Assembly: GCF_963921235.1 (NCBI RefSeq)
Contig: NC_086097.1
Coordinates: 10,850,001-10,914,000, forward strand
DNA from: Mobula hypostoma
Lineage: Eukaryota
Reading direction: 5' to 3'
DNA: 64,000 bases
A program made the translations under genes and the position numbers. Numbering within the stretch: the first letter of the stretch is position 1; each line of letters begins with the position of its first letter. Positions 21,460 to 64,000 of the stretch are shown here, in pieces. The notes below the pieces were generated by a model. The model was not told where the DNA came from and searched no databases. It worked only from the letters and a program-made list of their open reading frames with translations.

Positions 21460-22128
21460 CAGAATCTGAATCAGGTTTAATACTATTCAAAAATGTTATG
21501 AAATTTGTTGTTTTGTATCAGCAGTACAGTGCAATACATAATAAAGAAAACTAAATTACAATGAGAAATATATGCGTTTATGTATATATACAATTAATTT
21601 AAACAAGTGGTGCAAAAAGAGAGCAAAAGAAATAATAGCAAGGTAATTTGTTATTTATTGAGATACAGTGTGGAGCAGACCCTTCCAGCCCTTCAATCCA
21701 CGCCACCCAGCAACCCCCAAATTAATCCTAGCCGAAACATAGGACAATTTACAATGACCAATTAACCTACCACCCAGTCTGTGTTTCGACTCTGGGAGAA
21801 AACTGGAGCAGCCGGCGGAAAGCCACACGGTCACAGGGAGAACATACAAACTCGTGACAAATAGCACCTAGGTCACTGGTACTATAAAGCATTGTGCTAA
21901 CCGCTACACAACCATGCCGCCCCATACATGGGCTTATTGTCCGTTCAGAAATCTGATGGCAGAGGGGAAGAAGCTGTTCCTGAAACATTGAGTACGTCTT
22001 TTCAGGCTTCTGAACCTCCTCCTTGATGGTGGCAATAGGTATGCCATGGGTGATGAGGGTCCTTAATGATGGATGCTGCCTTACAAGTCATTGCCTTTTG
22101 AAGGTGTCCTTGATTCTGGGGAGGATCT
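21460..22128 (-). mobile_element. Rex1/Babar-like 3' fragment hosting a SINE
   Basis: (attctg) tail; 'gggaagaagctgttcctgaa' motif shared with 14500 and 61160. Confidence 0.7.
21650..21922 (-). mobile_element. V-domain (HE1-like) tRNA SINE, near full length
   Basis: Minus strand: tRNA-like head 'gggcggcatggttgtgtagcggttagc', V-domain, CR1-like tail. Confidence 0.8.
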
Positions 22129-28608: not shown

Positions 28609-28849
28609 AATTACTGAACTTGCTTTCATAATTAAACTGAGAAGAAAAGTCTTGGATCAAAATGGTGGCAAAATGGTTCTTAATGAAGGTTGCAAGCATG
28701 GAAAAAGACCAAGGTAACATGTCTGAACGACTGGCGTGCTATCGTGCTCACCTCAATAGGTCAATGACTACATTTGCAGTATGCCACCATCCACACTGGA
28801 CCTCTACAATTCACCAACTGACATAACCGATCAACAGATTACAGAATAG

Positions 28850-30003
28850 CCACAGCTCTACACTCGTCCTTACACATCTAGAGAAGAAGGATGCTTATGT
28901 GAGAATGCTGTTCTGGGACTACAGTTCAGCATTCAACACCATAATTCCCTCCAGGCTTGACAAGAAGCACAGAGACCTTGGCCTTCACCTTGCCTTGTGC
29001 GGCTGGATCCTGGACTTCCTGTCAGATCGCCACCAGGTGGTAAGAGTGGGCTCCCTCACCTCTGCCCCTCTGACCCTCAACACAGGAGCTCCTCAGGGCT
29101 GTGTCCTAAGCCCCCTCCTTTACTCTTTGTATACCCTTGACTGTATTGCCACCCGCAGCTCCAATCTGCTAATTAAATTTGCTGACGGTACTACATTAAT
29201 TGGCCTTGTCTTAAATAATAATGAGGCAGCCTGCAGAGAAGAATTCATTACACTGACACAGTGGTGTCAAGAAAACAACCTCTCCTTCAATGTCGCAAAA
29301 ACAAAGGAGCTGGTTGCGGACTACAGGAGGAATGGAAACAGGCTAACCCCTATTGACATCAATGGATCTGGGGTTGAGAGAGAGTGAACAGCTTTAAGTT
29401 CCTCAGCATACACATTACCAAGGATCTCACGTGGTCTGTACATACATGCTGTGTGATGAAAAAAAGCACAACATTGCCTCTATCACCTCAGACAGTTGAA
29501 GAAGTTTGGTATGGGTCCCCAAATCCTAAGGACTTTCCACAGGAGCACAATTGAGAGCATCCTGACTGGCTGCATCACTGCCTGGTATAGGAACTGTACT
29601 TCCCTCAGTCGCAGGGCTCTGCAGAGAGTGGTGTGGACAGCCCAGCGCATCTGTAGATGTGAACTTCCCACTATTCAGGACACTTGCATAGACAAATATG
29701 TAAAAAGGCCCCGAAGGATCATTGGAGACTGGAGTCACCCCAACCACAAACTGTTCTGGGAAAAGCATAAAAGCCAGGACCAACAGGCTCCGGGACAGCT
29801 TCTTCCACCAGGCCAACAGACTGATTAATTCACGCTGATACAATTATATTTCTATGTTATACGGACTCTCCTGTTGTACATAATATTTTTTATAAATTAC
29901 TATAAATTGCAGATTGCACATTGAGACGGGGACATAACGTAAAGATTTTTACTCCTCATGTATGTGAAGGATGTAATTAATAAAGTTAATTCATTTCAAT
30001 TCG
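28850..30003 (+). mobile_element. Rex1/Babar LINE, 5'-truncated (RT remnant)
   Basis: [66 protein letters not shown]. Confidence 0.9.
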
Positions 30004-31000: not shown

Positions 31001-31466
31001 TTCTATTCCTCTCTTATGAGACCATTGAATGTATTCCTAGTGCGATACTCCTTACAATCTGCATTGTTATGATCTTGTACTTTACTGTCTATCTACAATG
31101 CACTTTCTCCAGATTGTAACATTTTATTCTGCATTGTTATTGTCTTACCTTGTTCTACCTCAATGCATTGAAAAATGAATTGATCTGTATGAACAGTATG
31201 CAAGACAAGCTTTTTACTGTACCTACATTGAAGTCAGAAGTTTACATACACCTTAGTCAAATACATTTAAACTCAGTTTTTCACAATTCCTGACATTTAA
31301 TCCTAGAAAACATTCCCTGTGTTAGGTCAGTTAGGATCACTACTTTATTTTAAGAATGTGAAATGTCAGAATAATAGTAGAGAGAATGATTTATTTCAGC
31401 TTTTATTTCTTTCATCACTTTCCCAGTGGGTCAGAAGTTTACATACACTTTGTTAGTATTTGGTAG

Positions 31467-32168
31467 TGTCACGTACCCCTTGATGGGTTAAAGAACAGCA
31501 GAAATGGAAAACACTTTGGAGTCCAGTATTACTATTAACTAGTGGTATTTATTAGTAACTACGCAATACAGTAATATAAGTGCAGATTAATCAAACAGGT
31601 TAGCTATGATTATATATAAGTAAGTGTGGAAATATATGAAAACCAAGCTTCTTCAAGTCTAGGGGTAACTAAATAGTCTTACGATGATGAGTAAAGTTCA
31701 GTTCAGTTCGTGGTATTGAGTTGAGTAGTGATGGAGAGAGAGAGAGGGAGAGATTTGAGTCTTCAGGTGAGCTGTTGCAGTCGATCTTCCCGTTGTCCCC
31801 CGAAATCCTTTAAATGTCACTGACTGTGACCACAACAAAAGGGGACCATTCTTCTGTGGTGGAGCTATCAACTCAGGCGAGGGATGGCCACACAAATAAC
31901 TCCCCACCGGTCACGCCCTGTTCACACTGCAAGAGCCACTGATCGATCCGCCTGATCAATCCTCCAAAACCCACTTTTTCTGTGGGCACAACAAAGCTCA
32001 TTCAGTGTCCAAAATCATGTGTCTCAGGTCTATCATTTGACCTTCTATTTATCTCCCCATACTGAGTACCAACTGTCTCTCAAATAACTCCTCCCTTCTC
32101 TGTCTATGTAAGAATGTACAAGCAGGTGATGTTCTTGGGAAAGTATAAACAAACTGTGAGCAGTCCTC

Positions 32169-32221
<53 letters not shown>

Positions 32222-32301
32222 AGAAGATGTCGGTGCTAAATAACTCTCTCTCTCTCTTTTCAGAAGCACAGTTCATAGGGATAATTCAGGACCCCGTCAC
32301 A
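31467..32301. mobile_element. Solo LTR inserted in the Tc1 arm
   Basis: TGTCACG...CGTCACA; TSD GTAG/GTGG; empty site 'ggtagcattg' preserved in the other arm; internal (CT)n at 32170-32215. Confidence 0.85.
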
Positions 32302-32324
32302 GTGGCATTGCCTTTAAATTGTTT

Positions 32325-33259
<935 letters not shown>

Positions 33260-35105
33260 ACATCATTTTCTGACCTCAATCCAATAGAAAATTTGAGGGC
33301 AGAACTGAAAACGCGGGTGCGAGCAAGGAGGCCTACAAACCTGACTCAGTTACACCAGTTCTTTCTGGAAAAACGAAACAAAATTCCAGCAACTTACTGT
33401 GAGAAGCTTGTGGAAGGCTACCTAAGTTAAACAATTTAAAGGCAATGCTACCAAATACTAACAAAGTGTATGTAAACTTCTGACCCACTGGGAAAGTGAT
33501 GAAAGAAATAAAAGCTGAAATAAATCATTCTCTCCACTATTATTCTGACATCTCACATTCTTAAAATAAAGTAGTGATCCTAACTGAGCTAAGAAAAGGA
33601 ATGCTTTCTAGGATTAAATGTCAGGAATTGTGGAAAAACTGAGTTTAAATGTATTTGGCTAAGGTGTATGTAAACTTCTGACTTGAACTTTAGGTATAAA
33701 TGACAATTTATGTATCAATTTATATATACCAATGATGTACCAATTTATCAGTTTACTGATTTGCCAGACCTGTTTCTCTCGCTCTGCAGATGTAGAAACA
33801 GAAAAAAGAATGTTTGCCATTTGAAGACCATAAGATATGAAAGCAGAAGTAGGCCATTTGGCCCATTGCGTCTGCTCTGCCATTCAATCATGGGTTGATC
33901 CAATTCTTCCAGTCATCCCCACTCTCCTGCCTTAACCCCATACCCTTTGAGGCCCTGGCTAATCAAGAATTTATCTATCTTTGCCTTAAATACACCCAAT
34001 GACTTGGCTTCCACAGCCGCATGTAGCAACAAATTCCACAGATTTACCACCCTCTGACTAAAGTAATTTCTCCACACCTCAGTTCTAAATGGACGTCCTT
34101 CAATCTTGAAGTCATGCCCTCTTGTCCAAGAATCCCCTACCATGGGAAATAACTTTGCCATATCTAATCTGTTCAGGCCTTTTAACATTCAGAATCTTTC
34201 TATTACATCCCCCCTCATTCTCCTGAACTCCAGGGAATACAGACCAAGAGCTGCCAGATGTTGCTCATACGGTAACCCTTTCATTCCTGGAATCATTCTT
34301 GTGAATCTTCTCTGAACCCTCTCCAATGTCATTATATCCTTTTTAAAATAAGGATCCCAAAACTGCACACAATGCTCCAAGTGTGCTCTCATGAGTGCCT
34401 TATAGAGCCTCAACATCACATCCCTGCTGTTATGTTCTTCACGTCTAGAAATGAATGCCAACATTACGTTCGCCTTCTTCACAACCGACTCAACCTGGCA
34501 GTTAACCTTTAGGGTATCTTGCACAAGGACTCCCAAGTCCCTTTGCATCTCTGCATTTTGAATTCTCTCCCCATCTAAATTATGGTCTACCCATTTATTT
34601 CTTCCACCAAAGTGTATGACCATACACTTTCCAATACTGTATTTCATTTACCACTTCTTTGCCCATTCCCCTAAACTATCTAAGTCTCTCTGCAGGCTCT
34701 CTGTTTCCTCAACACTACCTGCTCCTTCACTTATCTTTGTATCATTGGCAAATTTAGCCACAAGTTCATTAATTTTCATTAGTTCATTAATGCCGTAGTC
34801 CAATCATTGACATACATCGTAAAAATCTGCTATCCCAACACCCTTTACTCCCACTCTCTGTTTTCTGCCGACCAGCCAATGGTCCACATGTGCTAGTAAC
34901 TTCCTGTAAATCCACGGGTTCTGATCTTGCTGAGGAGCCTCATGTGCAGCACCTTGTCAAAGGTCTTCTGACAATCCAAGTACTGTACACCACGTCTACT
35001 GCATCTCCTTTGTCTACCCTGCTTGTAACTTCCTCAAAGCATTGCTGTAGGTTTGTCAGGCAGGATTTTCCTTTCAGGCCTATCATGTCATGTGCCTCCA
35101 GATAC

Positions 35106-37811: not shown

Positions 37812-38249
37812 CTTCCTCTTTCCCTATTGCACCATGGAACCAGGCTCTTTTTTTGAAATAAGATCTAAAACTTTATTTTAGATTTCCATCATATCCAATG
37901 GTTTGTTATTATAGCATGATTCTAGGTTTACCAGAGTCCACATTGAGCAAACAGTTACCCACTGCCTTTCAAAAAGTAGGCTGAGGAGGAAGATGTTGAA
38001 GACATCAATGTTATTCAGCTGCCATACCAAAAAAAAATCATTCTCAAATAGGTGCAGTCAATAAAACTAAAGGAAAAACATGATGGATGAGATGTTGCAT
38101 GCACCTTTGTAGTAATATCATTCATTCTCTATGTGCCATGTGCTTGTAGTAATATGGTGGATTTGTATCTGCAGGAGATATAAATAATGCATATCTTTCA
38201 TACAGATCAATTCATTATACTGGTGCATTAAGGTAGAATAAGAATGACT

Positions 38250-62998: not shown

Positions 62999-64000
62999 GT
63001 GTTCCTTCAGTTGTCAACGGGTTTTCATGTACTGGAAGGTTAGGGCTTACAAGTTGACCCATCAGAAGTAGTGGCACACTTCTGTAAATCATCAAACTTT
63101 TGTGCAAATCTTCTTGTCCACTTTGCACTTTCTTTATGAGACCCTTCACTACCTTGACCGAACTTTCTGCTAGGCCATTAGATTCTGCATGATGTGGGCT
63201 TGAAGTTATATGTTGAAACCCTCAATCATTGGCAAAGGACTCAAATTAACAGCTCGAAAATTGTTGACCATTGTCTAATACCACTCCACATGGAACTCCA
63301 TGCCTCGCAAACACAGCTTTCGGGACGGTGATGACCACTTTGCTGGATGTTGAGTGCAGTGTTGCAACATCTGGGTAGTTGGAAAAGTAGTCTGTTACAA
63401 CAATGTGACTCTTTCCATTACAAACAAACAAATCCACTCCAACTTTGAAGTATGGCTTGTCTGGTACAGGGTGTGGTGTAAGCGGTTCTGCTTGCTGCTT
63501 TGGTCTGTAGGTAAGACAATCTCATATGAGACAATAGTCTGAATGATGTCTTGGTTCATTCTTGACCAATATGTCACTTCCCAAGCTCTACATTTACATT
63601 TTTCCTCACCATGATGCCCTTTGTGTATCTTCTGGAGCATTTCCTTGCACAGTGACACTGAAATCACAAACCTGTTCCCTTTGAACACTGTATCTTCCAC
63701 TACTAACAGTCCAGCTCTGCCCGCACGCTGATTCTGAATACACATTGGACTGTCATTATCAGCTGCTGGCCATCCTTTTTGTATTGTCTCTTTGAGTACT
63801 TTCATTGTTTCATCCATCCCTGCTGCTGTCCCAATCTCTGGTCAATCAGGAGATACCGGAATGAAGGTGACAATTATGTCAACACAGGCCTGTATACAAG
63901 CATTAATCTTTTGGTCACTCTTTTCTTTCTTGTTGACTGCTCAAGATAGTGCATCAGCAATAAATATAGATTTTCCCAGTGCATAGTGGTTTGGATGTAA

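Follow-up and report, generated by a model that had tools for sequence, protein, structure and literature searches.

An aged copy of a probable right-right derivative of a Sleeping Beauty-type Tc1 transposon family in a ray

Architecture of the element

The window, the whole 64-kb stretch of DNA analysed here, contains one copy of a Sleeping Beauty (SB)-type Tc1 transposon, which occupies 31226-33690 on the minus strand; comparison of the window with itself revealed no other copy of this family. Roughly half of the window consists of sequence that recurs elsewhere in it, and retroelement remnants lie at 63398-63841 on the minus strand (Integrase_H2C2) and at 28827-29384 on the plus strand (RVT_1). 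A Pfam scan of the 211 window open reading frames outside repeats returned no host-gene domain; its three matches were RVT_1, Integrase_H2C2 and ALKBH8_N, the last of which we take to be a common hit to LINE tails. The features of the element are listed below.

31224-31225, no strand: TA target-site copy on the left side, read from the sequence
31226-31466, minus strand: native right end, with the last transposase codons and the stop (31453-31455); both DR cores exact
31226-31255 (outer) and about 31424-31453 (inner), minus strand: DRs of the native end; tip with a 1-nt loss
31467-32301, no strand: later insertion of 835 bp, TGT...ACA, with 4-bp flanks GTAG/GTGG; splits the transposase near codon 337
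32302-33259, minus strand: transposase body, which begins with the final base of codon 19 and runs to about codon 337
33258-33272, minus strand: 15-nt piece of the left 5' UTR, comprising the 10-nt filler (33260-33269) and microhomologies
33270-33461, plus strand: inverted copy of transposase codons 274-340 and the stop; near 33420 it has lost 14 bp, a deletion private to this copy
33459-33690, plus strand: second right IR/DR, in place of the left IR/DR; tip changed at 33685 and 33690
about 33461-33490 (inner) and about 33661-33690 (outer), plus strand: DRs of the second right IR/DR; cores exact
33691-33692, no strand: TA target-site copy on the right side, read from the sequence

Both ends of the element are right ends, since each runs directly into the 3' end of the transposase gene. 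The first-pass annotation of this DNA had described 33270-33690 as a 421-bp inverted copy of the transposase 3' end plus the right IR/DR, and the mirror alignments bear this out. The IR/DR parts of the two arms (31220-31466 and 33696-33448) are 95% identical over 249 nt (E 1e-109), and the coding parts (32302-32497 and 33451-33270) are 84% identical over 196 columns, including the 14-nt deletion in the inverted copy. The gap between the mirrored stretches that it had given, 31226-31466 and 32306-32497, is accounted for by the later 835-bp insertion. Altogether, 26 of the 419 sites aligned between the arms differ, in addition to indels, with 16 substitutions in 178 sites of the coding part against 10 in 241 of the IR/DR part (Fisher p = 0.063). 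We make no claim of an older, separate donor for the inverted copy: its apparent excess of changes was non-significant (p about 0.05-0.06, with the sites split between the arms by hand and partly from recall), and the count was 5 versus 5 at the protein level.

Each end carries two DRs, spaced by 197 and 198 nt, and all four cores are exact; neither arm contains a third core-like site at two or fewer mismatches. The left IR/DR with its half-DR enhancer is absent from the element, and no left IR/DR was found anywhere in the window. That the SB left end carries the enhancer, as the first-pass annotation had stated, is documented (PMC7827188, PMC5224488). Both tips are damaged relative to the SB tip as given in a primer in PMC5224488, by a 1-nt loss at 31226-31228 and by changes at 33690 and 33685. 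Such damaged tips (31226-31230, 33685-33690) beside exact DR cores resemble the symmetric 'self-inflicted wounds' described for Tdr1 in the same source (PMC5224488).

Without the 835-bp insertion the element measures 1,626 bp, or about 1,640 bp once the 14 deleted bp are added back, which is near the wild-type length (1,638 bp for SB; PMC6362248). Similarly, the distance from transposase residue K20 is 446 nt to the new tip and 444 nt to the old one. This preserved length may be a chance agreement noticed post hoc, or may reflect an in-register switch between arms lying side by side. The 835-bp insertion is found only in the native arm, the inverted copy being without it, and its termini and flanks suggest a solo-LTR-like sequence. 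It has a long TC microsatellite and is single-copy within the window; two of its reading frames gave no Pfam match. Folding of 32302-33451, run without a shuffle control, only mirrors the inverted repeat.

The transposase remnant and its family

The minus-strand transposase aligns to a full-length relative (P0001) from residue 20 (33258), and the Pfam HTH_SB match likewise begins at profile position 20; thus, 19 codons are missing, in agreement with the first-pass annotation, which had the reading frame stopping about that far short of its start at 33259. The remnant contains the Pfam domains HTH_SB, HTH_Tnp_Tc3_2 and DDE_3, and its identity to P0001 is 88% over residues 20-234 and 83% over residues 233-338. 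In the inverted copy, residues 274-323 and 326-340 can be read. Nonsense codons at 146 and 151, a frameshift near 32618, the insertion and the loss of codons 1-19 all disrupt the reading frame. With the intact 340-residue frame lost, the element is, as read from its sequence, non-autonomous. In the native arm, 7 bp at 32482-32488 are inverted with respect to 33279-33285 of the inverted copy; this micro-inversion and an adjacent change together convert DLNP to DHNW.

The closest named proteins are salmonid Tc1 transposases (78-88% identity). A Mobula hypostoma record (P0050) has 9 of the 24 residues, between 52 and 234, in which the transposase body differs from P0001/P0002, one of the 24 being a frameshift artefact; this sharing points to a ray as the host. 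A Mobula gene model, LACTB2 isoform X2, likewise holds a piece of this family. As its SB-type transposase is 83-88% identical to proteins of salmonid type yet lies in an apparent ray genome, the family is a candidate for horizontal transfer; the list of Jia et al. 2022 contains no SB or SB-like element from Chondrichthyes (PMC9777934). In related genomes the family reaches very high copy number, as judged from sequencing runs matched to 32520-33900.

The junction

The first-pass annotation had placed a 10-nt filler between the truncated transposase and the inverted copy. The filler is present at 33260-33269, but it is not random. Positions 33258-33272 are identical, at 15 of 15 nt, to the 3' end of the pT2 primer PT2-R (PMC6353907), which identifies the filler as templated, a piece of the element's own left 5' UTR. 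The probability of a 15-nt match by chance in 1.6 kb, counting both strands, is about 3e-6, and that for the 10 free nt alone is 3e-3. In P0025, a protein read through from the left end, the inner DR is followed by AWKIPENDF-MALEASDRL, for which the window has SENDV-KSGSSLG; this sets the UTR piece just inside the left inner DR.

The piece is bounded by microhomologies of 2 nt at 33258-33259 and 3 nt at 33270-33272. Read in the sense of the element, the inverted right arm meets the UTR through three shared bases and, 10 nt further on, the UTR meets codon 19/20 through two. This second jump omits 171 nt of UTR and codons 1-19, the distance from the Met of MALEASDRL in P0025 to K20 being 57 codons, or 171 nt (four other proteins). 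Since the filler is templated and flanked by three and two shared bases, the junction consists of two microhomology jumps, and the UTR origin implies that a left end existed in the progenitor and was then overwritten or deleted.

A second copy in a TTC33 gene model

The open reading frames that cross the junction were searched against proteins. The plus frame gave 262 matches; among the 120 listed, the best, and the only one that spans the junction, is isoform X3 of TTC33 from Mobula hypostoma (XP_062905703.1, P0087), which is also the sole Mobula entry among them and scores 74 bits against 54 for the next match. This record begins with 139 TTC33 residues and continues through the antisense transposase N-terminus, the filler TSFS and residues 274-340 into the inner DR, its transposon-derived part corresponding to 33205-33490 of the window. 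The junction peptide is EPNL-TSFS-DLNLIENL in the record and EPDL-TSFS-DLNPIENL in the window. A search of P0087 against the PDB found similarity to TPR and SB100X only. The predicted terminal exon of TTC33 isoform X3 would be an exonised right-right junction, seen at the protein level in a gene model. No exon for TTC33 residues 1-139 was found within the window.

The two junction copies have diverged. They differ at 11 of 72 residues, and the record does not have the 14-bp deletion of the window. No derived residue is common to the record and the inverted copy of the window alone, and over residues 274-323 the private changes number five in the native arm, five in the inverted copy and four in the TTC33 copy. 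Such a divergence is star-shaped, as would be expected of copies from one burst. The simplest reading to which these comparisons point is two independent insertions of one progenitor, the second copy being seen as a predicted protein. A natural right-right non-autonomous lineage, as the first-pass annotation had proposed, gains support from the junction in this independently diverged copy.

The other searches gave no further copy. The junction was found in none of the 21 protein matches of the minus frame, in neither of the two matches of that frame among representative proteins, and in no viral contig. The full-length element DNA was not found in the plasmids, genome contigs and viral contigs searched. 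Both of the metagenome-contig matches to the junction were rejected as chance, since each lies in the coding sequence native to an unrelated transposase-like repeat and resembles the element nowhere else. These contigs are apparently animal and have in common a short transposase-like motif that mimics the junction pattern (L001:1063-1102, L002:981-1020). Three matches to the flank motif in viral contigs were likewise set aside, as all three cover only the 18-19-nt motif.

Among the 24 sequencing runs listed, the best word share was 0.42, and four of the 24 were compared with 32520-33900. None of the four covers the unique flank at 33742-33900, so they are uninformative for the copy number in the host. 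Loose read ends at 33259 (4/4 runs) and at 33270 (at least 3/4) continue as normal element, and those listed, 15 of the 359 joints and 24 of the 3,841 loose ends, include no junction.

Target site and flanks

A TA lies directly beyond both tips (31224-31225 and 33691-33692), as the first-pass annotation had noted. The insertion site is a 10-bp palindrome, of a kind present at only 18 of the 3,821 TA sites in the window. Presumably the host repeat is continuous across the site, with a nearly palindromic tail. The only clear relative of the left flank within the window, 38188-38242, ends before the insertion site. As an empty-site control, 21492-21601 (63%, E 0.002) was rejected, since the match is AT-rich and belongs to a different repeat family. 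The single TA on each side is compatible with transposition of the whole element, and just as compatible with a head-to-head double insertion followed by deletion or with an in-place conversion; the palindrome could mean that the flank was copied in place along with the right end. The earlier proposal that the rearranged form transposed as a unit thus stands on the same junction in the diverged second copy, but its flank argument is weak because other routes also leave one site. The case for mobility is carried by the second copy, not by the flanks.

Alternative explanations

The divergence between the two junction copies also bears on whether the rearrangement occurred only here, by a head-to-head double insertion at one TA with deletion or by conversion of the left end, the TTC33 copy then being the same insertion in a sister species. 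Both routes give back a single TA site, head-to-head tandems and junction deletions are known in DNA transposons (PMC5932611), the palindrome is rare, and the window has no host gene to argue against its being part of a long TTC33 intron. Nevertheless, orthologues should have common changes that predate speciation, and none was seen, as against the 11 residue differences and the 14-bp deletion. The distance between the window and the TTC33 copy is moreover similar to that between the arms, and for the two to be orthologues in sister species, the species would have had to part practically when the element inserted; if the window and the TTC33 record are of the same species, they would mean different loci. 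We regard such a one-off event as unlikely. It is very unlikely, in our estimation, that a junction formed a single time was multiplied through segmental duplication or ectopic gene conversion rather than by right-right transposition. The TTC33 copy is known without its flanks and its other end, and the very high copy number of the family in related genomes would offer many templates; however, the star-like divergence, at the depth of the family's arms, places the copying in the time when the transposase was active, and the window copy has a TA right beyond both tips.

Long inverted repeats are characteristic of fold-back artefacts, and the first-pass annotation had named an assembly artefact as one alternative. 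The 26 differences in 419 sites between the arms rule out both a fold-back artefact and a recent conversion. The indels, the 835-bp insertion in one arm only and the same junction in the independent record XP_062905703.1 also argue against a fold-back read or a mis-join. Autointegration products of SB hold both left and right ends with an internal duplicated TA (PMC3952818), whereas no left IR/DR is present here. An artefact or an autointegration product is therefore scarcely credible.

Proposed origin and spread

We consider it probable that the element is an old, decayed member of a right-right, non-autonomous offshoot of a ray SB-type Tc1 family, and that this offshoot, of which two copies are known, was mobilised as a lineage. 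In the proposed origin, which would have occurred once, the left IR/DR and about 30 nt of UTR gave way to 435 nt copied from the right end in inverted orientation, which became joined by the 3-nt microhomology to the 15-nt remnant of the left UTR; the subsequent 2-nt microhomology would have deleted the 171 nt of UTR and codons 1-19. Repair synthesis may have switched templates after priming in the outer DR common to both ends, or a head-to-head dimer may have lost its palindromic centre, two routes that are indistinguishable without the progenitor locus. Either would yield an element about 1,640 bp long, in which all four DR cores are intact and the inverted repeats measure 435 bp, but which lacks the half-DR enhancer and the transposase start. 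Judging from the two copies, this product would have spread by cut-and-paste in trans into TA sites, through the transposase of full-length relatives and at the time when the SB-type family was active. Its later decay is recorded in the separate changes in each arm, the damaged tips and the LTR-like insertion in the native arm.

Whether the right-right form was abundant, with tens to thousands of copies, and efficiently mobilised without the left IR/DR and enhancer is a tentative matter, to which we give somewhat less than an even chance. If true, the end asymmetry of laboratory SB would be dispensable in a natural IR/DR family, or would be offset by the 435-bp perfect inverted repeats. As a weaker extension by analogy, read-through transcripts like the TTC33 isoform could form transposase hairpins that help to silence the family. 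Mu killer of maize offers a silencing parallel for such hairpins.

Comparison with known systems

SB is a clinical gene-transfer vector designed around unequal ends. In the work of Izsvak 2002, right-right SB constructs reportedly transpose poorly. The end preference of SB is credited to the same work in PMC4505599. The left-end half-DR is described as enhancing but not essential (PMC7827188, PMC5224488); a doubled left end raised activity 2-3 fold (PMC8151067), and a solo right end gave no transposition whereas a solo left end gave 0.56% (PMC3952818). A natural right-right lineage is a test of the weight that unequal ends carry in a genome, and shows whether the enhancer can be made up for by long perfect TIRs. 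The element has in common with the SB/Tss1 IR/DR subgroup the two DRs per end about 200 bp apart and the TA duplication (PMC7827188, PMC5224488, PMC6362248, PMC9777934). Unlike that subgroup, it has no left IR/DR, half-DR enhancer or start codon, and it resides in a cartilaginous fish. A comparable case may exist in a bony fish whose SB TIRs reach 415 bp according to Table 1 of PMC9777934.

The nearest likeness is to the mariners Rpmar49 and Rpmar17 of Rhodnius prolixus, as described by Filee et al. (2015; PMC4678618), in which the 5' part is likewise replaced by the inverted 3' part, giving non-autonomous elements with long TIRs that contain transposase sequence. As in the Rpmar49 type, one breakpoint occurs in at least two copies, here at the protein level only. 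Rpmar49 was amplified to 13 copies, and deletion between adjacent copies by abortive gap repair was proposed (PMC4678618). These insect elements nevertheless differ from ours in being DD34D mariners with single short TIRs and mostly under 1 kb (PMC4678618), whereas the present element is a vertebrate Tc1 element of the IR/DR type, about 1,640 bp long, with a two-step junction that retains a UTR remnant, and its relative SB has functionally unequal ends. In the Drosophila mariner MITEs Dromar7, 11, 28 and 36, an end is also replaced by the inverted opposite end, with long TIRs, and the rearranged forms spread from a single progenitor; however, all seven Drosophila cases are left-left, the 3' end being replaced by the 5' end, whereas ours is right-right (Wallau et al., 2014; PMC4161770). 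MITEs are usually of high copy number and under 1,000 bp (Wallau et al.; PMC4161770), so that the present element, at 1,626 bp, falls outside the size criterion. Galileo of Drosophila mojavensis likewise has TIRs lengthened from internal sequence, with repair from the opposite TIR proposed, but it belongs to the P-element superfamily, its TIRs are near-identical and no specialised end was lost (PMC3573991).

Our searches of mainly open-access literature listed no report of a natural right-right IR/DR element. Right-right end replacement is already known in insect mariners; what appears new here is its occurrence in an IR/DR element, and no new class of element is proposed. The templated two-jump junction gives a base-level record of how an end replacement forms, a process that Wallau et al. 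(PMC4161770) called elusive.
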